From NCBI GenBank assembly GCA_002269645.1, contig NIVC01000754.1, forward strand, positions 310,001 to 374,000: a DNA stretch of 64,000 nucleotides. The letters are read 5' to 3'. Numbering within the stretch: position 1 is the first letter of the stretch; each line of letters begins with the position of its first letter. The DNA is from Macrostomum lignano (lineage: Eukaryota). Below the pieces are notes generated by a model. The model saw only the letters and a list, made by a program, of their open reading frames with translations. It searched no databases and was not told the origin of the DNA. Positions 4,007-64,000 of this stretch are shown here, piece after piece. The translations under genes and the position numbers were made by a program.

Positions 4007-4446
4007 GATGGCCCACTGCGAACTTACCTCAGTGAATTTTATCTCGCACTGCATCAGAAGCAGTGCCAGCAAACACAGGCTTGCTGGCTTCATATCCGGT
4101 TTTGTGAATAATTGGCCCTCCTGAAAAAGCTAATTAAACAAAATGAAATCTGATGCCTGATCGAGTCTGACTGAGATTCCCTTGTGGGGCCTTTCGTGAC
4201 CTGAACGTCTGCCGCTTTTGTGCAGCATGACGGGGGTGGGCCTGGGCGTACTTCCAGAAAACCAATGCACTTAATGCTGCACTGCTATTGGCTATCGCAC
4301 AGATCGAGCGAGCGGTTGACAGGCCATTGCGAGCAGCACCTGCGCTACATGGGCAATCGAAAACTGACACAGGTGAGGCAATAAAGGTGTCAGATTTTTA
4401 AGAAAGAAATTTTGCACTATCGTACGTAATTACTTTTATTAGCTAC

Positions 4447-11520: not shown

Positions 11521-12368
11521 CTCGGGCTGGCCAGCTACGCTCACCAGGTGGGCGGGCACGGCCTGTTGTGCGGCGAGAAGGCCAGAATCCTCTCCGACGG
11601 CCGGGGAATTCTCTTCAAACCGGTGCAGCGCGAGCCCAAAGGCTGGCAGGAGGTCGACTTCTACCGGGTGGCGTCCAAGTGTCCAGGGGAGCCGCTGATT
11701 GAACGTCTGGCCGCCTTCCTGCCGCGCTACTGGGGCTGTTCCGCCACCCAAGTACTGGCAGGTTCTACATCGGCATGGAGGACCTGCTGCGGGGTCTCCG
11801 ACGGCCCTGCGTGATGGACTGCAAGATGGGCGGCCGGTCCACCCCGCCTGGTGCGCCGGCCTCCAAGCACCTGCTACAGAGGGCAATGTACGCGCACCGG
11901 GAGAAGCTGGGCTTCATCATAACAGGCTTTAAAGTGTTCCCGCCAGGTAAGAAGGCCAGGTATTACTCCATCATGCACGGCCGCTCGCTAAATGAGGAGG
12001 GCGTCTTCGCCAAAGGGTTTCTACCGTTCCTTGAGCCAGCTGGCAGCTCAAGTCGAATCTGTCGGGTTGCGACAGAAATAGTTCGCCAGCTGGAGCAGCT
12101 GCGAGCTTGGTTCACCGAGCAGAGGATCTACCTGTTCTACGCCAGCTCGCTGCTCATCGCCTACGAGTCGGCGCCAACCCAAGCCGACGAGCTCGGAGTA
12201 GTGGTCAGAATGGTGGACTTCGCCCACGCCACTCCCGCTGCTGCTGCGACAGCTGCAGCGATGGCTACAGCAGCCGCTCCAGACGAGAATTACCTGCTCG
12301 GCCTCGGACGGCTCATCGACTACTTTCGACGGGCGGTGGCCGAATCCGCTGCACTCCCACCTGGTTGA
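11521..12368 (+). CDS. IPMK: Inositol polyphosphate multikinase (IPK superfamily); two overlapping frames joined by a 1-nt frameshift at the GGGG run 11732-11735; start codon unresolved
   Basis: The first frame gives HQVGGHG...KPVQREPKGWQEVDFY...FLPRYWG. The second gives FRHPSTGRFYIGMEDLL, PCVMDCKMG (PxxxDxKxG inositol-binding motif), GFIITGFKVF, YSIMHGRSL, ASSLLIAYE (SSLL motif), VRMVDFAH (IDF-type motif) and DENYLLGL. These match IPMK better than IP6K or IP3K. Confidence 0.85.
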
Positions 12369-15546: not shown

Positions 15547-39390
<23,844 letters not shown>

Positions 39391-42289
39391 CTTAGCCGAC
39401 TCGCTAAACACCGCTGCAGTTGTCACCTTTGACGGCTGGGACGGCAATCCGGGCATCGCCTTTTGATGCGTTCTCAACCTGGCCGCTGGGACCTTGGCGG
39501 CGTCTCGTTTTCTTCTTCTTTGAACTTTGCTCAGAACGGCGTTGTGTAATTTAATTTTTTAAACTTTTTGAATCGGCCCGGCTATGCAAACAGGCGATTG
39601 TCACCTTCTGCCAGTTGGACCGCAGGTAAATAATTGCTTGGAGTAGGGGGGGGGGGTGCTGTCAGACTCAACTGTTGAGGCTGTGAGCAGGGCTTGGCAC
39701 TGCCGTTATTATCATTATAGTTGAGTCTGTAGGCAACCTGCTCAAGCCGTATGACTAATAGGAGATGTTGGGGCCGCGGGTCAAGAGGATTTTTTATCGC
39801 GTCTTTGTACCGCCCGTCGTGTCGTTGTGGGAGATTTTCTCCTCTTTCTTTATTTCTCTTTGGCTCTTAGTCGGTTTGAGCAGCACGTTGGTAGTTTTTT
39901 TCTCACCAGTCAGTAAATAGTTGAATGCGATTCACCTTCAGAGAGCGGAGCGAGTTTAAATGGCGGAAGGAACTGAGAGGAGCTGCATGCAAGGGTAGTC
40001 TAAAACTTTAATGTCCCGCGCGAGACCTTTGGCCCTGACAGGACCTGAGCGAGAGGGAGTTGTGCTTGCGGGGTAGCGGGGCAGGACCCTCCCTTATGGT
40101 TAGAGAAGGGTCTAGTGGTCTGCCAACTCAGGCAACAGTAGTCGAACCAACCAATCCGCAGCTTCGGGCCAAAGCAGTTCGTCCAATGGTAGCCGGTCTC
40201 CTGTGCCTGCCTCTTGGTCTTGCCAGTGCATTTGGCTTTAGTGGGTATCGTGTTAAAGACAATTGGGACATAGGGAAAGAAATATGGAATGGCGCCCCTC
40301 CGATCCAATATGAAAAGGCGCCCCTGTCAAATTAAACGGCGCGGCCCTCTCTCATAGTAAATGGCGTCCCTCTGATTTGATATGGCACCCTTCTCAAGAA
40401 TAGCACATCCGCTCCTATATGAAATGGCACCCCCTCAAATAAAATGGGTGCGCTTGTCTCAAATGAAATGGCGCCCCCTAAAACGAAATGGCGTCCCTCG
40501 GGATGAAATTCATGATGTACCCCTTCAAATTAAGTGAAATTGAGGATTTGATTGGGTGAAATGAGATACATATACTCGTACATGTAAATAATCTGAAATA
40601 TTTAAAATACGCAGATGCCGATCGATACTCATAGCTCGCTAATTCGCAATGTCGTAGTTGTAATGCTTGTATATTTAAGAAACAAAAGCATGAATAAAAT
40701 ATCTAATTTAATAACGAAAAGCTAACCCTGAATTATACAATCTGCAATAGGGTTACGGTCACGGATGTCGGTTCAAGCTTGGGGATCTGTCTCGCACTAC
40801 AGACGCGGGCTTTCCAACACTGTCTTACAACACTTAGGATTATAATTCCATTCGAAAAATTGAAAAGTTAGAGAAATGCTGAGTAGCTGGCTACCTAATT
40901 ACATGTGCATGTACATGTACATCTGTATAGATGACGGCATGCGCGTCAATGCTTAGCTAGACATGCAATTTAAATTAAGTTTGCATGAATTTCGCATAAA
41001 TTTTGTAGGAAACATGAGCTATTATGAATTGTATAACTTCTAGTTGATCACTTCTTTTAGTTTCATCTTTTAGTTTCAAAAAAAATAAATTCGGCCAAAT
41101 ATACAGATTGAAAATAATCATTTGAACTTTAATTTCTTTAAATAACGATTAAGTTCAAGATTTAGGTCATGAGCTAAGATGTTTTATTTTAAATTAAAAC
41201 TAAGTTAAACTCTATCTGACTCGATTAGGAATTTAAATTTATTAAAAATGGTAGTTACCACAGTCATTTAGCGGGATTTGTCGCTTCACATATTAAGTTA
41301 AAACAAACTGAACGAATAGACTTTAAATATAGTGAGTAAAATATAATTAAGCTTGCAAAATTAATGGCAAAAAAATATACCATATAAAAAAATTACGTTA
41401 TAAAGGTTATTTATAATGGCTTTGTCGGCGTGGTAGCAACAGGGGGTCCTCTCAAAGAGCTTAAAGCTACAATTTTTTGAAGTTCTTTTTTCACTTGATC
41501 GAGCGTTGGTTTCTTGCTCTAGCGAAGCGAAACAAACACAGTTAGTGTGGATAGCTAAGCATGAAAACTCGTCAAGATTATCGACGTGTAAAGCTGTCAG
41601 TTTACAACATATTGTCACGTGGTAGCTGGTTTGGCTTCCTTATAAGCTTAAGTCAAAGTGTCTGCAGTTCCTGCAATTTGCACTTAATATGTTTTAGATA
41701 GATAAGCTAGAAATTTAGTAATATTTCTTTACCGTTATGTAATATACTGTGTATATTTTATAAGAGATAAACATCCTTTTTGGAGTAAAAGAAATGACAA
41801 GGCTGCAGTTAACTATTACCAGAAAGTACTCGTATTACTTTTATCTTTCAAAATTTCGATTGGATTTAAGATTTAAGTATATGAGCTAAGATTTTGTGCT
41901 TTTAGTGTCTAAATTGAAAACTTCACTTTAAACTCACATTCGAGTCTTTTAAGAAATTTAAATTTATTTTTAAATTAGTATTAACAGTAAATAAATAGCA
42001 ATAATATATAATGTCAAAGCTATTTTTTGTCAATGGCAGCAAAACCAAATGCTTGAGAAGTTTTCAAGTATCAATGTGTAAGAATGAATAATTAGATTTA
42101 ATTTTATTAGATTTTTTTAAATGAAAGGAATTTTTTGATTCGTTCAATTCGAGAGTCAACTAACCAGACAGTTAGCAATGTTCATTTTGAATTTCAAACT
42201 GACATCATTTTCTTCATGCTCGATAATCGTCAGGATTAATCCAGCCTCCCAAGTTAGCCGACAAGTCTAGTCAAGAAAGCAATTCAACA

Positions 42290-45200
42290 ATGGTCTACAA
42301 CTACACTAAGCCCCGCGGGCCAGTGGCCGCCATGTACAGCAGCCCCGGGCCGAAGTACGGCCTACCCGGCCTGGTTGGCCATCCGCACCATGACCCCCGC
42401 TCCGTACACAACCGCGGCCCGGCATATCCGTTCGGCGTTCGTCACGGCAAATATGCCGACGACTCGAGTCCGGGACCTTGCTACATGCCGCAGGAGAAGA
42501 CTTATCGTGACGGTCGGGACGCGGCGCCGCAGTTCTCCCTATATGGCAGGCCGCGGGACAGCACCGCGTTCTCGGCTCCGGGACCGGGCGCCTACCGGCC
42601 CGAGGCGACATCAATGGACAAAGCGCCCAGCTACAGCTTCGGGATGCGGCACCAGCAGTTCCGGACTGACAACACGCCTGGTGAGTCTTGAAGGGTCTCA
42701 GGATGGTGTGTCTGCCAGGATGATGTGTCTCAAGATGTTGTGTCTCTGGCTGTTGTGTCTGCCAGGATGATGTGTCTCAAGATGTTGTGTCTCTGGCTGT
42801 TGTGTCTCAGGATGGTGTGTCTTTCAGGATGTTGTATCTCAGGATGTTGTGTCTCAGGATGGTGTGTCTGTCAGGATGATGTGTCTCAAGATGTTGTGTC
42901 TTTGGCTGTTGTGTCTCAGGATGGTGTGTCTGTCAGGATGATGTGTCTCAAGATGTTGTGTCTTTGGCTGTTGTGTCTCAGGATGGTGTGTCTGTCAGGA
43001 TGATGTGTCTCAAGATGTTGTGTCTTTGGCTGTTGTGTCTCAGGATGGTGTGTCTGTCAGGATGATGTCTCAAGATGTTGTATCTCAGGATGTTGTATCT
43101 CAGGATGTTGTATCTCAGGATGTTGTATCTCAGGATTTTGTATCTCAGGATGTTGTGTCTCAGGATGTTGTATCTCAGGATGTTGTATCTCAGGATGTTG
43201 TATTTCAGGATGTTGTATCTCAGGATGTTGTATTTCAGGATGTTGTATCTCAGGATGTTGTATCTCAGGATGTTGTGTCTTTCAGGATGTTGTATCTCAG
43301 GATGTTGTGTCTCAGGATGGTGTGTCTCAGGATGTTGTATCTCAGGATGTTGTATCTCAGGATGTTGTATCTCAGGATGTTGTATCTCAGGATGTTGTAT
43401 CTCAGGGTGTTGTGTCTCAGGATGTTGTATCTCAGGATGTTGTATCTCAGGGTGTTGTGTCTTTCAGGTTGTTGTGTCTTTCAGGGTGTTGTCTTTCAGG
43501 GTGTTGTGTCTTTCAGGGTGTTGTGTCTTTCAGGTTGTTGTGTCTTTCAGGGTGTTGTCTTTCAGGGTGTTGTGTCTTTCAGGGTGTTGTGTCTTTCAGG
43601 GTGTTGTGTCTTTCAGGTTGTTGTGTCTTTCAGGGTGTTGTGTCTTTCAGGTTGTTGTGTCTTTCAGGGTGTTGTATCTCAGGGTGTTGTGTCTTTCAGG
43701 TTGTTGTGTCTTTCAGGGTGTTGTCTTTCAGGGTGTTGTGTCTTTCAGGGTGTTGTGTCTTTCAGGTTGTTGTGTCTTTCAGGGTGTTGTCTTTCAGGGT
43801 GTTGTGTCTTTCAGGGTGTTGTGTCTTTCAGGGTGTTGTGTCTTTCAGGTTGTTGTGTCTTTCAGGGTGTTGTGTCTTTCAGGTTGTTGTGTCTTTCAGG
43901 GTGTTGTATCTCAGGGTGTTGTGTCTTTCAGGTTGTTGTGTCTTTCAGGGTGTTGTCTTTCAGGGTGTTGTGTCTTTCAGGGTGTTGTGTCTTTCAGGTT
44001 GTTGTGTCTTTCAGGGTGTTGTCTTTCAGGGTGTTGTGTCTTTCAGGGTGTTGTGTCTTTCAGGGTGTTGTGTCTTTCAGGTTGTTGTGTCTTTCAGGGT
44101 GTTGTGTCTTTCAGGTTGTTGTGTCTTTCAGGATGTTGAGACTTTTGTTGTTGTTGTATCTCAGGATGTTGTCTCAGTGCATCAGCATGATATTTCTAAC
44201 GATCGTTTAAGTAGCTATGGTGAATGCATGCCTTCCAAAAACCGCATCTTAACCCCTACAGGCCCCAACGCTTACTTACCCGACAGTATGGTGGGCAGAA
44301 GCATTCGCAGCCAGAAGAAGTCCGCGCCGGCCTATTCGCTCACGGGTCGCTCCAAGAACGGCGGGTTTCACGAGGATTTGCAGAAGGTGCGCTGGCAGCT
44401 CTGAGAAAATCTTTGCGTACTTATCGGCATTTGGCGAGGTGCTTTCTCACCCAGGCTGGGTTATTGTGTCCAACCAGCATACATGTAAAAGTAAAAGCTC
44501 CGGAGTTCAATGCCTTGGCATGGCCGCAATAAGATTCAATGTGAATCCACCATTAGCAATCCAGCCCGATAAAGACTTGTGTCTTCTTTACTCTCCTCTA
44601 TCCCCTCTCCTCTCTCCTCTCTCCCCTCTCCTCTCTCCTCTCTCCCCTCTCCCCTCTCCTCTCTCCTCTCTCCTCTCTCCTCTCTCCTCTCTCCTCTCTC
44701 CTCTCTCCTCTCTCCTCTCTCCCTCTCCCCTCCCCTCTCTCCTCTCTCCTCTCTCTCTCTCTCTCCTCTCTCCTCTCTCCTCTCTCCCTCTCCTCTCTCC
44801 CCTCTCCTCTCTCCTCTCTCCTCTCTCCTCTCTCCCTCTCCTCTCTCCCCTCTCCTCTCTCCCCTCTCCTCTCTCCTCTCTCCTCTCTCCCCTCTCCCCT
44901 CTCCTCTCTCCTCTCTCCCCTCTTCTCTCTCCCCTCTACTCTCTCCTCTCTCCCCTCTCTTCTCTCCTCTCTCCCCTCTCCTCTTTCCTCTTTCCTCTCT
45001 CCTCTCTCCCCTCTCCCCTCTCCTCTCTCCTCTCCCCACTCTCTTCTCTCCTCTCTCCTCTCTCCTCTCCCCACTCTCTTCTCTCCTCTCTCCTCTCTCC
45101 TCTCCCCACTCTCTTCTCTCCTCTCTCCTCTCTCCCCTCTCCTCTCTCCACTCTCCCCTCTCTCCTTGCTCCTCTCTTTTGTTAAAAACTTGAACTCTCC

Positions 45201-45815
45201 AACCCAACATGCAACTATCTGCAGACTCCGGGTCCAGGCGCTTACAACACCACCCAGTCGGCGCACTACAGGAGCAGCGCCCCCAGCTACAGCATGACCA
45301 GCCGGAACGCCATGCCAGGGGACACCACCGTGAAGCCGGGGCCTGGCGCCCACTCGCCCGAGAAGGTGAGTCACTAACACCCGATTTTTATTTGGGACTA
45401 TTATCATATAGTATTGCACAATTTCACAAGCAATTTCACATGTAGCCAATCGTTTGTATGGCTCTACGTCAGTTGATAGAATCTCAGTACGCAAATAAGT
45501 CAAACCAAATGTGTTGACTCTTAATGGTGTACATTTTAGATCTTGCTTCTCTTGTGTGACGTCACCCCATAGAGAACTATTTTTAGAACGCTAGGCCTTC
45601 CCACCACAATGACAGTCGGAAAAGCCACACACATTGAAGTTAGTGGTGAATCATATTTTCAGGCTGAAAAGCTAAATTACGAGTAATAACTATTCAACTT
45701 CACAATTCATTTCCAGGTGTACGACAATTCGAAAAAAGCCGCCCCAAAGCACAGCTTCGGAATCCGGCACTCGCAGTACAAGGGCGAGTTCATCACGGGT
45801 GCCGACTTGGATTGA
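42290..45815 (+). CDS. ODF3: Outer dense fiber protein 3-like / SHIPPO1-repeat ciliary microtubule-associated protein; exons 42290-42680, 44262-44386, 45225-45365, 45717-45815 (756 nt, 251 aa)
   Basis: Repeated PGP(G)xY SHIPPO motifs (SSPGPKY, SSPGPCY, APGPGAY, TPGPNAY, TPGPGAY, KPGPGAH) with intervening APxYSF/GxR motifs and the N-terminal PRGPVAAMYSSPGP typical of ODF3. All introns are GT-AG with matching phases 1,0,0. Confidence 0.93.
42695..44175. repeat. Graded satellite filling ODF3 intron 1 (composite units -> 15-bp CAGGATGTTGTATCT -> 17-bp TCAGGGTGTTGTGTCTT)
   Basis: Direct reading. Confidence 0.93.
44590..45175. repeat. CT-rich (CTCTCCT)n tract in ODF3 intron 2
   Basis: Direct reading. 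Confidence 0.92.
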
Positions 45816-47366: not shown

Positions 47367-49769
<2,403 letters not shown>

Positions 49770-49772
49770 ATG

Positions 49773-50065
49773 AGTAGTAGGGCGAATTATGATACTGCCG
49801 CACTAGCACTGGCGAGATAGGCGGCAATGCAAATGTATAGGGAAAAATACACTGCGGAGATATGAGCCCTATCTCTGTGCATTGGGGACGGCTAAGCACT
49901 GCAGAGATATGAGCTCTATCTCTGTGCATTGGGGACGGCTAAGCACTGCAGAGATATGAGCTCTATCTCTGTGCATTGGGGACGGCTAAGCACTGCAGAG
50001 ATATGAGCTCTATCTCTGTGCATTGGGGACGGCTAAGCACTGCAGAGATATGAGCTCTATCTCTG
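49773..50065. repeat. Left terminal inverted repeat: 89-bp unique end + four full and one partial 47-bp units
   Basis: Reverse complement of 57876-58168; ATGAG anchors at 49862, 49909, 49956, 50003 and 50050. Confidence 0.95.
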
Positions 50066-50341
50066 CTTAACACAGGAGTGATAGGAGAAGAGGCGGCCTA
50101 TTTCTTTACACTGGAGATGGTTAACACTGCAGAGATAGGAGGAGAGGCGGCCTATCTCTTTGCATTGGGGTGGTTAACACTGCAGAGATAGGAGGAGAGG
50201 CGGCCTATCTCTTTGCATTGGGGGTGGTTAACACTGCAGAGATAGGAGGAGAGGCGGCCTATCTCTTTGCATTTGGGGGTGGTTAACACTGCAGAGATAA
50301 GATGTTAATCTATGTAATTGGAAATAATGTTTGCGAAAGAG

Positions 50342-50402
50342 CCAATCACAGAGCCCGGAGTGGGATGGGTGGTTTGGGGTGGTTCGGTCGAGGGTATATA
50401 AG
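50342..50402 (+). promoter_or_regulatory. Putative Pol II promoter (CCAAT at 50342; TATATAAG at 50395) for the left-end gene
   Basis: Motifs lie ~110-165 bp upstream of ATG 50507; an AATAAA at 51490 follows the ORF. Confidence 0.55.
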
Positions 50403-50506
50403 CCCCGAAATTGACAAGAAAGAATTCTCAATTTTTCAAATCCAAAATTTCATCCGAAATTTTCCTCAGCTTTTAACTTTTGTGAGTTTTCAATTGCGAA
50501 AGGAAA

Positions 50507-51283
50507 ATGGACATCTGTGAAGGCTATAAGGCACAAGTCCAGGAGTTTGAAGGACAAAAATTTATCGCTATTCGCAAATTTTACCGACACGGCAGCACGG
50601 CAAGTCTGAAGCCAGGCGTCCCAGGATTCAACCTGAATGTTCACCAATGGAAGAAATTGAAGGAGGTGAAACGCTCACTTGTGATTTCTGCACGCAACAA
50701 CGAGCCCAAGGTCGTGAAACTCGGCTTCGATAAGTTTGTGGAAGTCAAAGGCGGCATCATTTGGCTCAAACGGCTGCCGGAAGATTGCTGCGAGGAGTTT
50801 TTGAGACGAAACGCCGTACCACTGACTCCGCCGCTGTGGCAGAAGCTCTGGAAAATCGCCTCCTGGATCGACGGTCAGCTGGTGGCTCCCTTGAGGAACA
50901 CAATGCAGTACGAGCTGGAGTCTGATGAGGAAGAGGAGGAAGAGGACAAGAAGCTCAAGTTGGAGGCTGACCAGGACACGAAGCCCATAATGGAGACTGA
51001 TGAGGGCGGAGATCATGCTGATGACGAGGACGTTAGCTCGCCCACAAGGCCGCGCATTGTGACTGAGCCAATCACATCCACACCGATACCTTCGGTTGAT
51101 TCTGATGCTGGACTGCTTCCGCAGCGGGACACCAACCTTGAGGAAGATCCGGTGTGGTATCAGTTCAGGGCGCATGCAGCGGCTTCGACGGTGAGCAGCA
51201 GCAGCAGGAAGCGAAAGCTGCCATTTCAACTTCGTCGGCAGGACGCGATGAGGCTGCAGCCCAATGTTCGCTTTGATAACTGA
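50507..51283 (+). CDS. PC4-like (transcriptional coactivator p15 / ssDNA-binding fold) protein with a probable second PC4 repeat and an acidic tail, 258 aa
   Basis: KAQVQEFEGQKFIAIRKFY...LKPGVPGFNLNVHQWKKLKE parallels the PC4 consensus (VSVRDFKGKVLIDIREYW...KPGRKGISL..EQW..LKE). A second, weaker repeat reads KFVEVKGGIIWLKR...VPLTPPLWQKL, followed by an E/D-rich stretch. Confidence 0.75.
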   Translation: MDICEGYKAQVQEFEGQKFIAIRKFYRHGSTASLKPGVPGFNLNVHQWKKLKEVKRSLVISARNNEPKVVKLGFDKFVEVKGGIIWLKRLPEDCCEEFLRRNAVPLTPPLWQKLWKIASWIDGQLVAPLRNTMQYELESDEEEEEEDKKLKLEADQDTKPIMETDEGGDHADDEDVSSPTRPRIVTEPITSTPIPSVDSDAGLLPQRDTNLEEDPVWYQFRAHAAASTVSSSSRKRKLPFQLRRQDAMRLQPNVRFDN

Positions 51284-51603
51284 ACAGCTAGAATGCTTTG
51301 AATGCATTGGACTAACTAAATTACTTTTAGCTTGCACATGATTATCCAGCCTGACGGCACTATGCTGTTTTTTATCTCTGCTATTTCTGAAATGCTGGTG
51401 TGCGAGTGTTTTAGTGTTCGTTTTTATGGATTGTTTGCTTTCGGAAAATACACCGACTGTTACGATGTTAGAGGTTTCAATCTGACAGTAATAAATTAAT
51501 TTGCCACTCGTTTCTCTATCATTTAATTGTAATATAAATTTCTACTTAAGAAAAAATACTGTACAGCTAGAGCAGGTGGATAGGCACGTATCTTGATAAA
51601 CCC

Positions 51604-52674
51604 ATGATGGAGAAAATTTATTTGAAACCTGAGCAACCGGCTAGTTTTTCTTGTGCCTCAAAGTTGCTGCATGAAGTGAGGCAAAGAGGTGATCGAATAT
51701 CTGCAAAGAGCATTGAGCAGTGGCTCAGCGAGCAGCCAGTGCACACTCTGCACAAGCCAGCTAGGAGGCGATATCCAAGGGCCCCAATCATAGTGCGCGC
51801 AATCGATGATCAGTGGGAACTTGACTTAGTGGAAATGATTCCATTCGCAAAGCATAATAAAGGCTACAAATATATTCTCACATGCATTGACGTGCTCTCA
51901 AAATGTGCTTGGGCCAAGGCACTGAAAAATAAATCTGCTGCAGAAGTGAAGTCAGCATTCGAGAGCATACTGAGAAGTTCAAAGCGCCAGCCACGCACAG
52001 TTCGCACAGATCAGGGGAAGGAATTTATCAACTCTACTTTCCGTCAATACTGCATTGACAGAGGGATTCTGGCTTTCCCAACTAACAGCGAGCAGAAGGC
52101 AGCTGTCATTGAGCGATGGAATCGAACTCTGAAAAGTAGAATGTGGCGCTACTTCACCTACAAGAGCACACTGCACTGGCTTGATGTGCTGCCTAAGCTG
52201 GTAAAATCCTACAACAATACCTACCACAGAAGCATCAAAATGGCACCCACTAGTGTCTGCAAAGAGAATGAATCTGAAGTGTGGATGAACCTGTACGATG
52301 GAAAAGCAGTCGAGACTCTAGAAAAATTAAAGAAGCCTAAGTTCGCTGAAAACCAGTCAGTGAGAATTTCCAATGCTCCACGGATATTCAAAAAGGGATA
52401 CAAAGCGAGCTGGAGTGAGGAAGTGTACACCGTGGTGAGCAGAGCCCCAAAACATTATCCCTACATGTACAAGATTAAAGACATGCGGGGGCAAGAGATT
52501 CGAGGACTCTTCCATGAGCACGAGCTGCAGGCTGTCCCGGACTCACAGCGGCTGTATGTGATTGAGAAGATCCTGAAAACGGAGAAGCGGAAGGGAAAAA
52601 TTCGCTATCTGGTGAAATGGGCGGGCTACGACTCGACTGGCTGGGTGGATGAAAAAGACTTAAGAAAGGTTTAG
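51604..52674 (+). CDS. int: Polinton retroviral-like (rve) DDE integrase with C-terminal chromodomain, 356 aa, intact
   Basis: WELDLVEM (D), VRTDQGKEF (D), VIERWNRTLK (E; D-x33-E); C-terminal YVIEKILK...YLVKWAGYDSTGWV chromodomain. Confidence 0.95.
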   Translation: MMEKIYLKPEQPASFSCASKLLHEVRQRGDRISAKSIEQWLSEQPVHTLHKPARRRYPRAPIIVRAIDDQWELDLVEMIPFAKHNKGYKYILTCIDVLSKCAWAKALKNKSAAEVKSAFESILRSSKRQPRTVRTDQGKEFINSTFRQYCIDRGILAFPTNSEQKAAVIERWNRTLKSRMWRYFTYKSTLHWLDVLPKLVKSYNNTYHRSIKMAPTSVCKENESEVWMNLYDGKAVETLEKLKKPKFAENQSVRISNAPRIFKKGYKASWSEEVYTVVSRAPKHYPYMYKIKDMRGQEIRGLFHEHELQAVPDSQRLYVIEKILKTEKRKGKIRYLVKWAGYDSTGWVDEKDLRKV

Positions 52675-52702
52675 CTTTGGCACAGCCCTCATCATGTAGT
52701 TT

Positions 52703-53521
52703 ATGATTATAATGCGAACTATTTTGATTAACAGTGAGCATGCTGAAGGTACTCCTAGTGACTTTAATTTTTACCTGCCTTCACCTATTTACTTGGATCG
52801 AAATGTGGACTATGAGGCAGGTCTGGCTGAAATCCATCTGCCTGCTGCATGGTTCAATGTTGACGAGCCTTACTGCTTCACTGTCTCAGATGGAAGAGAG
52901 CATGAGGCCCTGGTTCTTCAACCCGGACGCTTTGCTAGAGTGGAGGAGCTGGTGGAGCGCCTGAATGAGCTGCTGGCCAACTCTGATTCGCTGTTCTTTG
53001 ATGCAATGAGTGACAGGGAGTCTGAGATGGAGGCTGATGAGTCCGGCCTGATGGGGCGTAGTGGCAACAGGGAATTTGGTATGAAGTTCGAAATCCGCAA
53101 CTCACGAACTGTGGTGCACAACAACACTGCGAGAGCAGAGCTGTTTCTTCCATCTAGTAAAATTCTGCATTGGCTGGGATTTGGAAACCAGGCTGTGAAA
53201 ATCCAGCCAGGGAGCCGCGTATCCGAGCATTGCATTGGCTGCCCGCGCACCAGCTTAATCAATGTGCACTGCAGTATCGTTGAGTCAACTAATTGCAACT
53301 GGAGCTCCTTGTTGAGAACAGTTGGAATGAAAGCTGGCATTGAATGGGGCAACTATCAAACAAAAATATTTAAGAAAACAATATTCTTCCCGATTCAACG
53401 AATCAGTCTTCTTCACAGCATTCGAGTTCAGCTGCGGGACATCTATGGTTGCCCACTGATTGCACAGACTCACAGCCCTGTTCTGCTTACAGTTCAAATT
53501 CAGGAGAAACGCATTCAATGA
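52703..53521 (+). CDS. Minor capsid protein (penton, single jelly-roll), 272 aa
   Basis: GTPSDFNFYLPSPIYLD..YEAGLAEIHLPAAWFNV and the C-terminal INVHCSIVE...LLRTV...FFPI...IRVQLRDIYG match the Polinton penton pattern; the position between integrase and MCP also fits. Confidence 0.82.
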   Translation: MIIMRTILINSEHAEGTPSDFNFYLPSPIYLDRNVDYEAGLAEIHLPAAWFNVDEPYCFTVSDGREHEALVLQPGRFARVEELVERLNELLANSDSLFFDAMSDRESEMEADESGLMGRSGNREFGMKFEIRNSRTVVHNNTARAELFLPSSKILHWLGFGNQAVKIQPGSRVSEHCIGCPRTSLINVHCSIVESTNCNWSSLLRTVGMKAGIEWGNYQTKIFKKTIFFPIQRISLLHSIRVQLRDIYGCPLIAQTHSPVLLTVQIQEKRIQ

Positions 53522-53895
53522 ACTACCAGCAGCTAATCCAGCAATATTCGGGGGTGAGGACAGGACACGAAAAGCCTGCACTCTATGGCTGTGGGAGCTT
53601 CCCAGGGATCATGACATACCAGCCTCCGCCAGCGGCTATATCATCATCATCAGCCTCGACGCTTAGCAACGTCAGGCGCAAAAGAAATACTGAAGCAAGT
53701 CCGAAACGATTGAAGAAAAAGAAGGGCACCCGAAAGGCAACTGGTGGAAATCGCAGTAAGAGGTCGAGCAAGGCTAGTGGGAAAAAGCTTAAGAATAGGA
53801 AGACGAAAGCAAAGAAGAATAGAGCAGGCGGAGGAAAGCGAAAGCAAAAAGTCAGCAAGAAAACTGTGAAACGCGTGCTCGACTCTCTGTCATAG
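53518..53895 (+). CDS. Small Lys/Arg-rich core-protein-like ORF (pVII-like), 125 aa
   Basis: The ATG overlaps the penton stop (ATGA); N-terminus MNYQQLIQQY...LYGCGSFPG followed by a highly basic tail; ends 2 nt before the MCP ATG. Confidence 0.65.
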   Translation: MNYQQLIQQYSGVRTGHEKPALYGCGSFPGIMTYQPPPAAISSSSASTLSNVRRKRNTEASPKRLKKKKGTRKATGGNRSKRSSKASGKKLKNRKTKAKKNRAGGGKRKQKVSKKTVKRVLDSLS

Positions 53896-53897
53896 AC

Positions 53898-54662
53898 ATG
53901 GCTTACGGATTCAATCCCAGACTTGATTTATTTAAGACGCCCGTTCTACAAACCTGCATTGAAAAAGCTACTTATGTTGATATTCACCCAGTTAATTCCA
54001 TTGTTGCAAACTCTCCCATTGAATTTGACTGCCACCAATCTGCCGATGAATATACAGATCTGCTTAATTCTTTTCTTTATATTCGCTGCCGCCTTGTGAG
54101 ACTGGATGGGGGTTTGCTGAGGGAGGATGTTCGAGATGGAGATGGCATCATCACCGAGCGCAGAGACAGTGACGTGCACCCAGAAAATTTTGTTCTGTCT
54201 ACAGCCTTCTCAGATGTAATTGTGAGCATTAACCAGCGAGTGGTGTCTGGTGGAGACCAGCTCTATCCCTACCATGCGTACTTCAAAGCACTAATGAGCT
54301 CATCCGATGCCCAGCAACTAAAACTTTACCCTGCTGGCTTCCTGGAGCCGAACTCGGCAGCTGAAGAGCACACGGAGAGCCACAGGGAATCCCAATGGAT
54401 GGAGTATGCGGGGCCGCTCTTCAGCGATGTTTTCCAGTGCCCAGTGTTTCTGCTAAGCAATCTGCACCTGCACATCAAACTGGTCCCCAGCGATGGGGCC
54501 TTTGCCATCAGAACCCCGAATGCAAACAACGCGGCATACCGAATGGAAATCTCTCACAGCATTCTGCATCTTCGCCGAGTCAAAGTGATGCCCCACATCA
54601 GCCTGGCCCATGAGCAGGGGCTGACAAACCAAAATGCACTGTATCCCATCGAGCGAAGCTGA
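53898..54662 (+). pseudogene. Major capsid protein (double jelly-roll), C-terminally truncated at 254 aa
   Basis: LDLFKTPVLQTCIE, HPVNSI..SPIEF, EYTDLLNSFLYIRCRL, FSDVIVSINQRVVS, LYPYHAYFKALM and YPIER match the N-terminal half of Polinton MCPs; the ORF stops abruptly where an unrelated 18-bp repeat begins. Confidence 0.85.
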
Positions 54663-54965
54663 CTCGCTGCTGGCTGCTGACTCGCTGCTGGCTGCCGACT
54701 CGCTGCTGGCTGCCGACTCGCTGCTGGCTGCCGACTCGCTGCTGGCTGCCGACTCGCTGCTGGCTGCTGACTCGCTGCTGACGTCATGGTCCACCCAAGG
54801 GTGGTCATACTCGATCCACGAGTGGTCATCCTCCATCCACGAGTGGCCATTCTCCATCCATGAGTGGTCATTCTCCATCCATGAGTGGTCATTCTCCATC
54901 CATGAGTGGTCATTCTCCATCCATGAGTGGTCATTCTCCTGCTCCATCCAGGAGTGCTCAACCAT
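54453..54965 (-). CDS. Hypothetical repeat ORF (ENDHSWM-type and SESAAS-type repeats) running antisense into the MCP remnant
   Basis: ATG at 54965; 21-bp and 18-bp codon-phased repeats; no recognisable homology. Confidence 0.3.
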   Translation of the reverse strand: MVEHSWMEQENDHSWMENDHSWMENDHSWMENDHSWMENGHSWMEDDHSWIEYDHPWVDHDVSSESAASSESAASSESAASSESAASSESAASSESAASSESASLDGIQCILVCQPLLMGQADVGHHFDSAKMQNAVRDFHSVCRVVCIRGSDGKGPIAGDQFDVQVQIA

Positions 54966-55846
54966 AGAAAAGGCAAGCAGTTAAAAGCTGACAGTGTTTA
55001 CTGGCTGCAACTGAGTGTCATAAGCAACTGGGAGTGAATATTGGAAATCTTTTTCGTAAGTCTTTATTGCTGCAATACTGGTACAATATCCACACTTACA
55101 AGCTAGTAGATGCTGGTTATATTTTTTTGGTTCTCCCTTAAGCTAGCTCTCTGCATGCATATTCTATTGATCCCTATTCGTAAAAGTTCGTTTCTATTTG
55201 CCTCCTACGCAGACTCAATCGGTAAAAAATGCAAAATGAAGCCAATAGTTAATTAACAAACCAATCACCGAGTGGAAAAATGCTGACATTATATATATAT
55301 ATTTTAAAAAAATTATCGAATTCACATGGTGCAATCATAGTCAATAAACAATGCATGGAACAATGAATTACAAATACAGACGAGAGTTTAGAAGCAGAAA
55401 TATAGCTGAAAAGTTCAATAATTAAAGAATGAGGAAACACCGCGTCAAAGCAGTAGAAAGAAAATTATACCTAATCAATCGCACCAAGCATACGAAACAT
55501 CACCAATTTATTGAAAGTATGTTATGTTGATTTTAATTTGTTAAATTCAACTGTATATGTTTCACCTACTTTTCAAATAATTTTTTTTACCTCGGATACC
55601 AAAAAAATATTGGTTGCCACTACGAGCTACGAGCTTTTTTTAAAACTAATTTGGAAATGAAAACTGAAAACTTATAAGCAAGATTCCTAGAAGCGAATAC
55701 AGAGTTATGAGATGATCAAATCATTAATTAATGTACCTACTTTCAACTTTAAAAAGCTAGTTGAAATAAAGTTTTAGCAATAATTGCAATAAATGGGTAG
55801 ATTTCTCACTCCACACAGAAAGCAAAAAAGTACAAAAATTGCTTAG

Positions 55847-57205
55847 TCACAGCGGCACAATTCTAATACGATTTTCGAAAATCGTTACCTCGTACCCAGC
55901 CCTGCCGACAGGAGGCAGAAAGAAGGCAACTCCAGCTGGCACGGGTGGAGTTTCGGATTGAGAAGCTGGAATTGTAGAGGCTGCAGCTGGGGCGGCTGGA
56001 GCAGCTGGGGCAGCCAGAGCAGCTGGGGCGGCTGGAGCAGCTGGGGCGGCCAGAGCAGCTGGGGCGGCCAGAGCAGCTGGGGCGGCCAGAGCAGCTGGGG
56101 CGGCTGGAGCAGCTGGGGCGGCCAGAGCAGCTGGGGCGGCTGGAGCAGCTGGGGCGGCTGGAGCAGCTGGGGCGGCCAGAGCAGCTGGGGCGGCCAGAGC
56201 AGCTGGGGCGGCCAGAGCAGCTGGGGCGGCCAGAGCAGCTGGGGCGGCCAGAGCAGCTGGGGCGGCCAGAGCAGCTGGGGCGGCCAGAGCAGCTGGGGCG
56301 GCCAGAGCAGCTGGGGCGGCCAGAGCAGCTGGGGCGGCCAGAGCAGCTGGGGCGGCCAGAGCAGCTGGGGCGGCCAGAGCAGCTGGGGCGGCCAGAGCAG
56401 CTGGGGCGGCCAGAGCAGCTGGGGCGGCTGGAGCTGCAGGTGGCACAATTGCATTATGCGACTCATTGTCGCTGCCCTCCTCTTCTAGGATTTCCATTTC
56501 GTGGTCGTCTTCAATTAGATGAAGTTGTTTTCCAGCAATCACCGGAACCGAAGAGACAGGTTGCTGCTGCTGCTGACCAGCGTTGAATTCCCTGAGGAAC
56601 TGATCCAGGACATCTTCCTCTATGAAGTTTATGACAGCAGCAGCCTCGACTCCAGCAGCCTCGACTCCAGCGGCCTCGACTCCAGCAGCCTCGACTCCAG
56701 CAGCCTCGACTCCAGCAGCCTCGACTCCAGCAGCCTCGACTCCAGCAGCCTCGACTCCAGCAGCCTCGACTCCAGCAGCCTCGACTCCAGCAGACAGCTC
56801 AACTTCAAATTCTGCAGCTGCTGAAGACCCGCTTGGCCTCATCCTCTTCAATGTAGAGTCAATTACTTGACTCAAGTGAGCTGATAGCAGACTCCTGCTG
56901 GCTCCTTTTTTCTGCTGGATCTTCTTTTCTCTCTCGTTGCTCTTTTTGATGGCGCGGATTACTTTCCAGCGGTTACTTTCTTGCTTTTTCTTGTCATCGC
57001 TGACGATCCTGTGTCCTCGATGATATGCTGGAATTTTTCCCTCCTGCAGAGCTTCGACGGTGCCGCACTGGTCGCATGCCAACCAGCATGAGACCAGACA
57101 GTTCTCATTCTCGTGGTGTCTTGGGGACACGCCTCCAAGCAGGCACACTTCGCAGCTTATACAGACCTCATAGAGGTCTCTATGACAACTTTTAAAAGTT
57201 TTCAT
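55847..57205 (-). CDS. Hypothetical element accessory protein, 452 aa: Cys-rich N-terminus, basic helix, (AGVEA)n, acidic spacer, (APAAL)n, short hydrophobic beta-rich C-terminus
   Basis: Long ORF with non-repetitive flanks in one frame; C-x2-C-x2-C-x14-C-x3-C-x3-C-x2-C cluster; TATATAAGC box ~100 bp upstream (57314-57306). Confidence 0.65.
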   Translation of the reverse strand: MKTFKSCHRDLYEVCISCEVCLLGGVSPRHHENENCLVSCWLACDQCGTVEALQEGKIPAYHRGHRIVSDDKKKQESNRWKVIRAIKKSNEREKKIQQKKGASRSLLSAHLSQVIDSTLKRMRPSGSSAAAEFEVELSAGVEAAGVEAAGVEAAGVEAAGVEAAGVEAAGVEAAGVEAAGVEAAGVEAAAVINFIEEDVLDQFLREFNAGQQQQQPVSSVPVIAGKQLHLIEDDHEMEILEEEGSDNESHNAIVPPAAPAAPAALAAPAALAAPAALAAPAALAAPAALAAPAALAAPAALAAPAALAAPAALAAPAALAAPAALAAPAALAAPAALAAPAALAAPAAPAAPAAPAAPAALAAPAAPAAPAALAAPAALAAPAALAAPAAPAAPAALAAPAAPAAPAAASTIPASQSETPPVPAGVAFFLPPVGRAGYEVTIFENRIRIVPL

Positions 57206-57305
57206 TTTGAAAGAGAAAGAGTTGTTTTTTAGAAGTAGTAAGGTTTTTAAAAATCATTTTATACAATTTGTTTTTGTCTATTTGTTTATTTGTACTTGCG
57301 TGGCT

Positions 57306-57314
57306 GCTTATATA
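57306..57314 (-). promoter_or_regulatory. Putative TATA box (TATATAAGC) for the right-end gene
   Basis: Same 9-mer as at the left end, in mirror position relative to the TIR. Confidence 0.5.
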
Positions 57315-57656
57315 GTAATTTGTACATGCATGCCCTCTCCTTATCATATCGTATATGAACATCCAGCCATGCTCAGGTAATAATTACTTTACCGTTATAG
57401 AGGCCACCGGCTGTAATTAGTGTATCCCCCCGTCCCCTTATCCAGGTAAGCAACACCAGCCGTCCTCTGTGCAGTTGTAAAACTTTATAACCTTACCCTA
57501 ACACAGAGCACAGAGATTGGCCACCCCTCTTATCTCTGCAATGTTTAGCCGTTCCCAATGCACAGAGATAGGATCCTCTCCGCAGTGTATTTTTCCTATA
57601 TCCTTTTTGCCGCCTATCTCGCCAGTGCTAGTGCGGCAGTATCATGAATCGCCTCC

Positions 57657-58168
57657 ATCTCCGCAGTGCTTAGCCGTCCCCAATGCACAGAGATAGAGCT
57701 CATATCTCTGCAGTGCTTAGCCGTCCCCAATGCACAGAGATGGGGCTCATATCTCTGCAGTGCTTAGCCGTCCCCAATGCACAGAGATAGAGCTCATATC
57801 TCTGCAGTGCTTAGCCGTCCCCAATGCACAGAGATGGGGCTCATATCTCTGCAGTGCTTAGCCGTCCCCAATGCACAGAGATAGAGCTCATATCTCTGCA
57901 GTGCTTAGCCGTCCCCAATGCACAGAGATAGAGCTCATATCTCTGCAGTGCTTAGCCGTCCCCAATGCACAGAGATAGAGCTCATATCTCTGCAGTGCTT
58001 AGCCGTCCCCAATGCACAGAGATAGAGCTCATATCTCTGCAGTGCTTAGCCGTCCCCAATGCACAGAGATAGGGCTCATATCTCCGCAGTGTATTTTTCC
58101 CTGTACATTTGCATTGCCGCCTATCTCGCCAGTGCTAGTGCGGCAGTATCATAATTCGCCCTACTACT
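57657..58168. repeat. Right terminal inverted repeat: nine 47-bp units + 89-bp unique end
   Basis: GCAGTGCTTAGCC anchors every 47 bp from 57663 to 58039; the terminal segment matches the left end with one mismatch seen. Confidence 0.95.
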
Positions 58169-58657
58169 CATATGCTTTGTCCATGTCCATGTTGTCATTG
58201 CTTTTCATGGGCGTAACTAGTTGTTTTTTAGTTTTTTGAAACTTTCGTCAGGCTCTCAGGAGTAGTCCGGAATGGTTAAAAACCCAAAAACATGAAAATT
58301 TAGCTTACCTTCATTGGTGGTGGCAGCCAGATTTGTTAGTCTCCTATGTGCTTTCAATGAGAACTGGGTTTGAAATGGGGCCGATTTCAAATTTAAGCTG
58401 CTTTTTTATGAGCAAAAGTTTAGTTAATTTCATTAGGTCTCCACGCCTCTGTTGAAGTTCAGGTATACAAAATCAATCCCCATGAAGAATCTCCCCACCC
58501 TAATCCCCCATTCCCCATGTTCCAGTTGATGGGTTGAAGCTGCATAAAAATAATGCCAAAATTTGAAATCAGCACCATCAAAAACCAATTTTGATTTAGA
58601 GACATAATTACTATCCTATCAAAACTGCAACTTATATACCTATAATTCAAGAAGTCT

Positions 58658-58912: not shown

Positions 58913-59708
58913 TGGCACACAATTATTTACACACAAATTAGAAATATTTACCCTGCCATTTTTTTCTTCGGCTGTAGTTCTCATTTTCGATGCAGTAAGC
59001 CTGGCACTCGAACCCGTGGCTTCGGAGCCCTTCTGCGTTGAAGTCTCGTCAGCCCTGCACCAGATGTAGTTCCCCAGGCTGGCAGAAGTTGCACCAAATT
59101 TTATTCAATAATTTACGAGGAAATAAGATAGCCACAGGCTTCGCAAGGTTTATGAAATATTATTTATCATATAGCATCTCCGTCATCAAGCCAGCATATC
59201 CCGAACACTGTAGGGCTTTGACTGCCGAGGTGACTACCTCTTGGCCATAGACACTAGCAAGAGTAATTAATACTGCAAAACTCTAGGCAAGCATCGATTT
59301 GAACTAATTTTTCTGATATATCTGGGTACTAAAAACCTTTCTAACCCGCCTCACGCCGCTGACAAGCTCAGTAGTAGTCTCGGAACATAGATAGAATTTT
59401 TTGCGCTGCTTTTTCATTTTCAGAAACATTTTCAACAATAAAGTGAAAACAATATTTTCACGTAGATCGTTAACCAGGGTGTATTTATTAGTTGATTGAT
59501 TACTTGTCAGTTTTATTAGCATTGGAACCCGTCACCAAAGGTAGTTCATGGAGCATGTCTAATTCATAGACTTCAGCGCTCATCTTGAGTAGATCTCAAG
59601 TCTGAAAAATGGAGGTAAAAAATTAACTTATCCGATATGTTTAATATATTATTTCAATATTCGCAGGCCTTTTTATTAAATGGGAATCTCTCACCTTTCA
59701 TGCTCAGA

Positions 59709-62700
59709 TTATTGCAAAATCATTCTTTTGCTTATTTTTCTTCTTCTTGTTCTTTTGCGTTTACTTTTGCTTTTGCTTTTGCTTCTGCTTCTGCTATTGC
59801 GACGGGGAGCAACTTGAGCCAAGCGACGCTTCACCCAGCGCTGAACGGTTCGACGACCGCGGTATCGCATTGATCGGCTGATTTTTTTTACCTTGCGAAA
59901 AATGATTTTCTTAAAACGGCGTCGGCTAGACCAACTTCGAAGCACCTGGCGTTTTACAATCCTCCTGCCGCGCCTCAGCATCTTCCGTTTCTCTCTTCGC
60001 AGTTGAATTCGGATAGTTCGTCGGAGAACTTTCATGCCTTGCCTTAGTTTCTTTTTGATGCGTCTAGAACTTAGTCTGGAGACTCGAACGCGTCTTCTCA
60101 CTGACTTTCTTGATGCTCGCCGAGCCCGTCGAGCTGCTCGGCGTTTGAGTCGTCTTAGTATTGATCGACTAGCCGCACGACTGGCTCTTCGTACATTACG
60201 TCTGACCCTACTGACAGGCTTAGAAACTTCTTTCAAAATGTCTTGCAAACAGGCCAGCTTACTAGACTGCTCTAAAAAGTGAAAAAGACAAGTGCGTAAA
60301 TTAAAACAATAGTTAGATCAGGGAGAAAATATGGGGAACAAGGAATAAAATATGCAAGAAGACAATAGTGCTTACTTGGCAAACAAACTCTAACACCACG
60401 AAGAGCCGCTTTAAAGTTCTTCTTTGCGATTTTTAGCTTAGCATTCACAGATGAAACAAAATCTTTCTTTTCCGTCTCCGAAAAATCTCTAGAACCGACA
60501 CGTTCCAACGACTTTCGAAGAAGACGCTTTGCATTGCGCCACAGAGCTATGTCTTTTTCAGACAAAATAGTGAAGCACTCCTCGCTTTCAGAAATGCCTA
60601 ATGAGTCTCCGAAAAACTTCAGCAGCTCATTCGAAGACGCAAAAAGACGTCTCTTTGAAGCGCGCCTACGTCTTCGGATTGCCAGTTTGCGTCGTCGGAT
60701 TGCAAGTCTGCGTCTTCGGATTGCAGCACCTCTTTTGGCAGCGCGTCTCTTGGCAGCGCGTCTCTTTGCAGCGCGTCTCTTTGCCGCGCGTCTCTTTGCT
60801 GCGCGTCTCTTGGCAGCGCGTCTCTTGGCAGCGCGTTTGCGTCTTCGGATTGCTAGTCTGCGTCTTCGGATTGCAGCGCGTCTCTTTGCAGCGCGTCTCT
60901 TTGCAGCGCGTCTCTTGGCAGCGCGTCTCTTTGCCGCGCGTCTCTTTGCTGCGCGTCTCTTTGCAGCGCGCCTACGTCTTCGAATTGCCAGTTTGCGTCG
61001 TTGGATTGCGAGTCTGCGTCTTCGGATTGCAGCGCGTCTCTTTGCTGCGCGTCTCTTGGCAGCGCGTCTCTTTGCAGCGCGTCTTCGTCTTCGGATTGCC
61101 GCGCGTCTCTTTGCTGCGCGTCTCTTTGCAGCGCGTCTCTTGGCAGCGCGCCTACTTCTTCGGATTGCCAGTTTGCGTCTTCGGATTGCCAGTTTGCGTC
61201 TACGGATTGCCAGTTTGCGTCTTCGGATTGCTAGTTTGCGTCTACGGATTGCCGCGCGTCTTTTGGCAGCGCGTCTCTTAGCAGCGCGTCTCTTTGCAGC
61301 GCGTCTCTTTGCTGCGCGTCTTTTGGCAGCGCGTCTCTTTGCAGCGCGCCTACGTCTTCGGATTGCCAGTTTGCGTCGTCGGATTGCGAGTCTGCGTCTT
61401 CGGATTGCAGCACGTCTCTTTGCAGCACGTCTCTTTGCTGCGCGTCTCTTGGCAGCGCGTCTCTTTGCAGCGCGTCTTCGTCTTCGGATTGCCGCGCGTC
61501 TCTTGGCAGCGCGTCTCTTTGCAGCGCGTCTCTTGGCAGCGCGTCTCTTTGCCGCGCGTCTTTTTGCTGCGCGTCTCTTTGCAGCGCGCCTACGTCTTCG
61601 GATTGCCAGTTTGCGTCGTCGGATTGCGAGTCTGCGTTTTCGAATAGTCATTCTGCGTCTTCGGATTGCCAGTCTGCGTCTTCGGATTGCCAGTCTGCGT
61701 TTTCGAATTGCCAGTCTGCGTCTTCGGATTTGGAGTCTGCGTCTACGGATTGCCGCGCGTCTCTTTGCTGCGCGTCTCTTTGCTGCGCGTCTCTTTGCAG
61801 AGCGCCTACGTCTTCGAATTGCCAGTTTGCGTCGTCGGATTGCGAGTCTGCGTCTTCGGATTGCAGCGCGTCTCTTTGCAGCGCGTCTCTTTGCAGCGCG
61901 TCTCTTGGCAGCGCGTCTCTTTGCAGCGCGTCTCTTTGCAGCGCGTCTTCGTCTTCGGATTTGGAGTCTGCGTCTACGGATTGCCGCGCGTCTCTTGGCA
62001 GCGCGTCTCTTTGCAGCGCGTCTCTTGGCAGCGCGTCTCTTTGCCGCGCGTCTCTTTGCTGCGCGTCTCTTTGCAGCGCGCCTACGTCTTCGGATTGCCA
62101 GTTTGCGTCGTCGGATTGCGAGTCTGCGTCTTCGGATTGCAGCGCGTCTCTTTGCAGCGCGTCTCTTGGCAGCGCGTCTCTTGGCAGCGCGTCTGCGTCT
62201 TCGGATTGCCAGTTTGCGTCGTCGGATTGCGAGTCTGCGTTTTCGAATAGCCAGTCTGCGTCTTCGGATTGCCAGTCTGCGTTTTCGAATTGCCAGTCTG
62301 CGTCTTCGGATTGCGAGTCTGCGTCTTCGGATTGCAGCGCGTCTCTTGCAGCGCGTCTCTTTGCAGCGCGTCTCTTGGCAGCGCGCCTGCGTCTTCGGAT
62401 TGCCAGTTTGCGTCGTCGGATTGCGAGTCTGCGTCTTCGGATTGCAGCGCGTCTCTTTGCAGCGCGTCTCTTTGCAGCGCGTCTCTTGGCAGCGCGCCTG
62501 CGTCTTCGGATTGCCAGTTTGCGTCGTCGGATTGCGAGTCTGCGTCTTCGGATTGCAGCGCGTCTCTTTGCAGCGCGTCTCTTTGCAGCGCGTCTCTTGG
62601 CAGCGCGTCTCTTTGCCGCGCGTCTCTTTGCTGCGCGTCTCTTTGCAGCGCGCCTACGTCTTCGGATTGCCAGTTTGCGTCGTCGGATTGCGAGTCTGCG

Positions 62701-64000
62701 TCTTCGGATTGCAGCGCGTCTCTTTGCAGCGCGTCTCTTGGCAGCGCGTCTCTTGGCAGCGCGTCTGCGTCTTCGGATTGCCAGTTTGCGTCGTCGGATT
62801 GCGAGTCTGCGTTTTCGAATAGCCAGTCTGCGTCTTCGGATTGCCAGTCTGCGTTTTCGAATTGCCAGTCTGCGTCTTCGGATTGCGAGTCTGCGTCTTC
62901 GGATTGCAGCGCGTCTCTTGGCAGCGCGTCTCTTTGCAGCGCGCCTACGTCTTTGGATTGCCAGTTTGCGTCGTCGGATTGCGAGTCTTCGTCTTCGGAT
63001 TGCAGCGCGTCTCTTTGCAGCGCGTCTCTTTGCAGCGCGTCTCTTTGCAGCGCGTCTCTTGGCAGCGCGTCTCTTTGCAGCGCGTCTTCGTCTTCGGATT
63101 TGGAGTCTGCGTCTACGGATTACCGTGCGTCTCTTGGCAGCGCGTCTCTTTGCAGCTCGTCTCTTGGCAGCGCGTCTCTTGGCAGCGCGTCTCTTGGCAG
63201 CGCGTCTCTTGGCTGCGCGCCTACGTCTTCGGATTGCCAATTTGCGTCGTCGGATTGCGAGTCTGCGTCTTCGGATTGCAGCGCGTCTCTTAGCCGCGCG
63301 TCTCTTTGCTGCGCGTCTCTTGGAAGCGCGTCTGCGTCTTCGGATTGCGAGTCTGCGTCTTCGGATTGCAGCACCTCTTTTGGCAGCGCGTCTCTTGGCA
63401 GCGCGTCTCTTTGCAGCGCGTCTCTTTGCCGCGCGTCTCTTTGCCGCGCGTCTCTTTGCCGCGCGTCTCTTTGCTGCGCGTCTCTTGGAAGCGCGTCTGC
63501 GTCTTCGGATTGCGAGTCTGCGTCTTCGGATTGCAGCACGTCTCTTTGCAGCGCGTCTCTTTGCTGCGCGTCTCTTGGCAGCGCGTCTGCGTCTTCGGAT
63601 TGCCAGTTTGCGTCGTCGGATTGCGAGTCTGCGTCTTCGGATTGCAGCGCGTCTCTTAGCCGCGCGTCTCTTTGCTGCGCGTCTCTTGGCAGCGCGTCTG
63701 CGTCTTCGGATTGCGAGTCTTCGTCTTCGGATTGCAGCGCGTCTCTTTGCAGCGCGTCTCTTGGCAGCGCGTCTCTTGGCAGCGCGTCTCTTTGCAGCGC
63801 GTCTGCGTTTTCGGATTGCCAGTTTGCGTCTACGGATTGCTGCGCGTCTCTTGGCAGCGCGTCTCTTTGCAGCGCGTCTCTTGGCAGCGCGTCTCTTTGC
63901 CGCGCGTCTCTTTGCTGCGCGTCTCTTTGCAGCGCGCCTACGTCTTCGGATTGCCAGTTTGCGTCGTCGGATTGCGAGTCTGCGTCTTCGGATTGCAGCG
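59709..64000 (-). CDS. Very large Arg/Ala/Lys-rich repetitive basic protein (AAKRR and LAIRRRR repeats), 5' end outside the window; exons >64000-60376 and 60271-59709; one 1-nt frameshift near 62347
   Basis: Repeat variation is almost entirely synonymous (GCA/GCC/GCT/GCG). A 104-nt GT-AG intron (CCAA|GTAAGC ... CTTTTTAG|AG) joins the repeat-plus-unique domain in phase to a 187-codon Arg-rich exon; AATAAA lies ~30 nt after the stop. Confidence 0.82.

Follow-up and report, generated by a model that had tools for sequence, protein, structure and literature searches.

An 8.4-kb Polinton-derived element in Macrostomum lignano is a member of a young ~16.8-kb family minus one internal deletion

The window (a 64,000-nucleotide stretch of Macrostomum lignano DNA, positions 310,001 to 374,000 of contig NIVC01000754.1 in assembly GCA_002269645.1) contains an 8,396-bp element at 49773 to 58168, with an AGTAGT tip at its first base and an ACTACT tip at its last (Table 1). 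The two arms of its terminal inverted repeat (TIR) differ at 1 of 293 positions, and the hexamer CATATG lies immediately outside each of them. CATATG is palindromic and could belong to the TIR only, so its status as a target-site duplication calls for a separate test at homologous sites. Besides its own site, the left flank has two matches in the assembly (C894 and C875), and both read across one CATATG and then into the right flank, with no element between; the hexamer is therefore a true duplication, and the ends, the duplication, and the near-identical TIRs reported in the initial annotation are all borne out. The element is present at one of three homologous sites, making the insertion polymorphic. 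It is young.

Table 1. Coordinates of the element, its genes, and associated features within the window
Feature	Positions	Strand	Basis or remark
Left target-site duplication CATATG	49767..49772		Single CATATG at two empty homologous sites
Left TIR: AGTAGT tip, then 47-bp tandem units	49773..50065	+	Looser 53/54-bp units continue to ~50315
PC4-like ORF, 258 aa	50507..51283	+	PF02229, E 5.5e-8
Four TAAGAA boxes (putative promoters)	51547, 52661, 53371, 53790 (51547..53795)	+	42-147 nt before integrase, penton, core-like, and capsid start codons
rve integrase with chromodomain, 356 aa	51604..52674	+	PF00665, E 3.2e-13; PF00385, E 1.4e-5; D, D, E motifs found
Penton (minor capsid protein), 272 aa	52703..53521	+	Predicted structure, pLDDT 89.3; mavirus penton, E 6.5e-10
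Basic core-like ORF, 125 aa	53518..53895	+	35/125 residues K/R
Truncated major capsid protein	53898..54662	+	Residues 1-253 of 427, then one junction-made residue and stop
Deletion junction	54657..54658		8,422 bp absent relative to sister copy C906
18-bp tandem array (7 units), then 21-bp array	54658..54939		Sister rows: 8-12 18-bp units in 28/28
Orphan ORF, 452 aa	55847..57205	-	Cysteine-rich N terminus, repeat-coded tail
Partial inner copy of right tip	57607..57653		Oriented like tip
Right TIR	57876..58168	-	47-bp units reach inward to ~57657
Right target-site duplication CATATG	58169..58174

The ORFs kept in the element are uninterrupted, and the assignments first made for them stand up, the PC4-like, integrase, and chromodomain regions by Pfam match and the penton by structure prediction. 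The penton model, built with 24 aligned sequences of the 33 available, has the mavirus penton as its top PDB match, and adenovirus pentons come next. The 125-aa ORF matches no Pfam family, and its basic composition alone suggests a core-like function; the 452-aa orphan likewise has no Pfam match above the cutoff, and its best Atlas score (0.75) offers only a lead. Of the 254 residues of the truncated capsid ORF, 253 agree with those of the 427-aa ORF in a sister copy. Judging from the structural model, it would retain the first jelly roll and the linker helix together with the beginning of the second roll; given what is established about capsid structure, such a remnant would not form a capsomer. 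As initially annotated, no pPolB, ATPase, or protease is found between the element ends. The element thus carries the marks of a Polinton/Maverick (AGTAGT TIRs with a 6-bp duplication, an rve integrase, and a penton) and lacks those of an autonomous one (a whole double jelly-roll capsid protein, pPolB, and packaging ATPase and protease). Its early description as a recent, non-autonomous insertion is thus supported.

TAAGAA occurs four times in the element, each time on the plus strand and 5′ of a start codon, with a rough positional P of 0.0009 that is not independent of the choice of motif; their number by itself does not exceed that in shuffled sequence (4 versus 1.8; P = 0.11).

The terminal motif of the element occurs 79 times in the genome at one mismatch and 83 times in a looser search. 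Contigs carrying both ends include six copies of 16.5 to 17.1 kb, three with insertions (17.9, 20.2, and 26.2 kb, two of these long ones being assembly joins of different loci), and three short copies of 5.5, 7.9, and 8.4 kb, the last of which is the window copy. The anticipated full-length relative, with these same ends and a pPolB, is indeed present: a 1.5-kb probe from the deleted part is found whole in 39 of the 40 candidates scored (out of 64), and such relatives appear to occur dozens of times in this genome. With insertion-polymorphic sites and copies that are 98 to 100% alike, the family is very young.

As seen in these sister copies, the DNA lost from the window copy encodes the remainder of the capsid protein, a protease, an ATPase, three further ORFs, a TBP-like protein, and pPolB. 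The model of the 427-aa sister capsid protein is a double jelly roll that matches PBCV-1, mavirus, and Sputnik (E 9e-15), and the protease is of the adenain type (PF00770, 23.0 bits versus a cutoff of 21.3). The P-loop ATPase scores 0.99 in Atlas to Pox_A32 clusters, with no Pfam match at E 0.01 in any of three sequences and with weak, ABC-type matches in the PDB. The TBP-like protein (PF00352, E 7.9e-25) is encoded by an ORF 99% identical to a database protein labeled Macrostomum lignano; if it reads the TAAGAA boxes, even the kept integrase would need a helper for its expression. The pPolB (PF03175, E 1.8e-12) also contains an endonuclease VII domain. Its commonest length occurs in 13 of 31 sister rows (which are not distinct loci), and many assembled copies have broken frames, at some of which the run contigs disagree with the assembly. 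A search for group I introns returned no Rfam match in 8 stretches totaling 78,402 bases.

Sister copies match the window copy exactly up to 54657, and the match resumes inside the 18-bp tandem array, so that the junction initially placed near 54660 was located to within 3 bases. The element and the missing segment sum to 16,818 bp (8,396 plus 8,422), versus ~16.8 kb for the parent family: the element is a member of that family minus one 8,422-bp deletion. Scoring of 31 of the 238 candidates gives at least 30 further matches to the left arm, at 98 to 100%, each of which stops at the junction, and all 10 loci with an exact anchor continue past the junction point into the capsid gene. Between 52250 and 54657, 16 of 31 sister rows show no substitution relative to the window copy. 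Over 6,161 bp, the window copy has 3 positions at which it differs from every row, and these could be either mutations or errors in the assembly. The junction sequence has 1 match in the assembly and none in controls, and of the 40 candidates scored out of 151, one matches it over the full span; the same deletion at different target-site duplications, as the initial annotation had envisaged, is not seen in these sets. No piece bridging the junction was found among the 32 contig pieces listed for runs X1, X2, X7, and X8 (72 more fall outside the listing), nor any joint among contigs of runs X1, X7, X3, and X13 on the full-length stretch; contigs drop rare variants, and both results count neither way.

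We consider it somewhat probable that one ~16.8-kb Polinton copy underwent this single 8,422-bp internal deletion, likely after integration, and that the product is likely a dead end. By such a route, a full-length genome would have integrated by its own rve integrase, yielding the 6-bp duplication; a break in the integrated copy would then have been mended by end joining or by interrupted gap repair, landing in the 18-bp array. The deletion cuts the capsid gene after codon 253 and takes the protease, the ATPase, three ORFs, the TBP-like gene, and pPolB. Interrupted gap repair is described as yielding internally deleted transposons (PMC3014272). The initial annotation had named, as the outcome that would overturn its own proposal, a single-copy short form deleted after insertion, with a full-length allele at the orthologous site. 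The first part holds, in that the short form is single-copy; the second does not, in that no full-length allele was found at the site and both homologous sites are empty, so that the deletion may have come before or after insertion. The proteins of full-length sisters could in principle move an end-intact short copy, and there is no sign that this one has spread.

Other members of the family are also rearranged. Pairing target duplications among the 80 flanked termini (of 83 found) yields 20 loci, plus 2 when variable terminal AGT units are allowed, or 22 in all; ~0.8 chance pairs are expected among the cross-contig duplication matches, and empty sites were examined for 2 of the 22 loci. Five of the 22 (the window copy, C1228, C318, C1023, and C2301+C3189) retain both ends and have lost pPolB wholly or in part, and two further rearranged copies, C664 and C436, lack a paired duplication. 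The integrase is kept in all five end-intact loci. When the four simple deletions are placed at random, the integrase is kept and pPolB struck in all four with P of 0.09 to 0.10, a value not far from suggestive over four events; no selection is thus needed to account for the kept genes, and selection for an "integration plus virion" set is unsupported. Three of the five rearranged loci have nearly no private substitutions. This and the proportion of rearranged loci are much for passive decay, and point to a process tied to the activity of the element.

One such process would be extrachromosomal copying, in which pPolB, while copying the capsid gene, skipped to the 18-bp array and produced a defective genome that kept both origins, was integrated by proteins of a full-length helper in the same cell, and was not amplified. 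This origin is possible, and we hold it only tentatively. The clean ends and duplication of the window copy are consistent with it, as are the intact ends of all five loci without a full pPolB, at whose junctions zero or few bases are shared. The terminal AGT units vary from one to three, as slippage at a protein-primed start might give. The C2301+C3189 locus is unusual: it consists of two left arms, inverted head to head, on contigs that enter one site from opposite flanks. The site, with the duplication AGTGAG and three empty homologous sites, lies within a tandem repeat, and both flanks continue in register; the common junction has 2 matches in the genome and a 5-base shared word. The arms are ~0.7% different and come from different subfamilies, so that two templates have been joined. 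Such a join would result from a polymerase that switched templates within a mixed replicating pool, and also from ectopic-copy repair, and it is a weakness of the extrachromosomal reading that repair from an ectopic chromosomal copy yields the same structures throughout. It is a further weakness that the contigs show no free genomes and that no junction recurs: the 8 junctions from 7 rearranged loci are each limited to their own locus among 124 stretches. The broader proposition, that the family sheds defective genomes during extrachromosomal replication, that these are integrated with helper proteins, and that the window copy, three end-intact deletions, and the two-left-arm recombinant form a fossil record of defective interfering genomes, we judge rather unlikely. 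If true, it would indirectly indicate that several Polinton genomes had replicated together in a single germ-line cell.

That a chimeric long read or a mis-join dropped the center of a full-length copy is very improbable. The assembly does join different loci (the ends of C1021 and C1063 carry duplications that belong to other contigs), and contigs of two runs differ from the window at three single-base indels in noncoding spacer. However, the 1-kb neighborhoods of the two breakpoints have no mutual alignment and no common word longer than 10 bases, leaving no repeat on which to collapse; both flanks match the empty site; and similar but distinct deletions are present in other copies. Least credible of all is the view that the window copy belongs to a satellite lineage, or is half of a split Polinton, and spreads by borrowing its polymerase, ATPase, protease, and capsid: the genome does contain a helper family with matching ends, but the junction is single in the sets given above, no complementary polymerase-only segment with the same ends occurs among the 80 mapped termini (of 83; the split-half version is rejected on this ground), and the capsid gene is cut within its second jelly roll. 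The satellite or defective-interfering-like lineage retaining chosen genes, as initially proposed, gives way to the geometry of a central deletion, which explains the kept set.

The AGTAGT ends, 6-bp duplication, chromodomain-bearing rve integrase, and penton of the window copy are those of animal Polintons/Mavericks (adintoviruses; PMC8502044, PMC8097293, PMC5718144), and the parent family further matches these in its double jelly-roll capsid, adenain-type protease, A32-like ATPase, PF03175 pPolB, and length of 16.5 to 17.1 kb; the window copy differs in lacking pPolB, ATPase, protease, and the second jelly roll. The alpha class of adintoviruses is defined, in the text of PMC8502044, by an OTU domain at the pPolB N terminus plus PF03175, and the comparison with the parent family extends to the PF03175 half only. 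Among vertebrate Polinton copies, 96% are given as defective, mainly through stops, frameshifts, and insertions (PMC8097293), whereas the ORFs kept here remain open and a single deletion accounts for the defect. Of 33 resolved EMALEs of Cafeteria, 3 are reported as short yet TIR flanked, and one type lacks morphogenesis genes (PMC8547959); these are protist virophages dependent on a giant virus, whereas the window copy has an animal host, and any helper would be a sister Polinton. Internal deletion is a standard route to nonautonomous transposons (PMC3014272). Such internally deleted DNA transposons resemble the window copy in keeping their ends, losing their center, and being mobilizable in principle by full-length elements, but they often amplify and outnumber their parents, whereas the window copy is single.

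The window copy is a Polinton-derived defective element, neither an autonomous Polinton nor a demonstrated satellite. Nonautonomous Polinton families are present in Repbase. Defective interfering genomes of linear DNA viruses keep both replication ends and lose the replicase, and inverted-duplication forms of them exist; the window copy likewise keeps both ends without a replicase, and is known here from contigs alone. A literature search, largely at the level of article records, turned up no account of animal Polintons that act as defective interfering genomes or as satellites.

Overall, the window copy is probably no satellite virus but an ordinary dead end. A single deleted copy matters little in itself, defective copies being the norm for Polintons. 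What it offers is a lead to a very young family, and the broken members of that family can serve to test how Polintons replicate. Should the short and two-left-arm forms exist as free DNA, they would be direct evidence that an animal Polinton replicates outside the chromosome and is complemented there, a point that in the cited papers has so far been a matter of inference.

One insertion, spanning two contigs of the searched assembly (C2301 and C3189), is a single element of ~15.1 kb built from two left arms that are inverted relative to each other and belong to different subfamilies. It contains neither pPolB nor a right arm, is flanked by the 6-bp target-site duplication AGTGAG, and has three homologous sites that lack the element. 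Other copies of this Polinton family are rearranged or carry insertions of their own (see the table), and the repeat-rich insert lies at an identical position in its two host copies. The number of terminal AGT units differs among copies, from one to three, with the 6-bp duplication retained despite these differences (L006, L065, L035, and L036).

Full-length sister copies encode a TBP-like protein, which also matches TBP in the PDB (E 2.1e-18) and for which 5 homologues were found among 256 candidates. In PMC8502044, the sole mention of TBP is in a figure legend, within the section on non-animal hosts.

Outside the element, the window holds host ORFs and tandem arrays. Several of the arrays contain extended reading frames free of stop codons, which are unlikely to be genuine genes.

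Features of the window and of related Polinton copies (G000, searched assembly; C, contig; L, fetched stretch)
Feature	Location	Strand	Details
Two-left-arm Polinton insertion	G000:C2301:56054-70947; G000:C3189:41270-55822		L027, L028, L074, L075
Rearranged Polinton copy	G000:C664 (L061, L118)		Right arm replaced by short left end, inverted order
Rearranged Polinton copy	G000:C436 (L053)		Older, ~4 kb, 13-kb deletion
Insertion within copy C382	L119:3974-5578		ORF: THAP, P-element-like transposase
Insertion within copies C1785 and C2880	L123:705-6802; L105 from 8874		6.1 kb, repeat-rich
TBP-like ORF, full-length sisters	L013:4231-4803		190 aa; PF00352, E 7.9e-25
Host ORF, inositol polyphosphate kinase	window 11703-12368	+	PF03770, E 1.4e-39
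Host ORF, sperm-tail PG-rich repeat protein	window 42227-42691	+	PF07004, E 4.1e-10
Long simple and short-unit tandem arrays	window 4400-6150, 16800-20900, 25900-27300, 42900-45400, 59700-63300		Strong strand skew

Contigs C1021 and C1063 each carry two element ends whose duplications match other contigs, and thus the assembly fuses distinct loci across near-identical copies. The copies themselves are mosaics, in that variants common to several copies occur in differing arms (window positions 50320-57640 versus the sister loci). Assembly joins could contribute to this pattern, but the mosaic copies suggest that recombination within the Polinton family is frequent.
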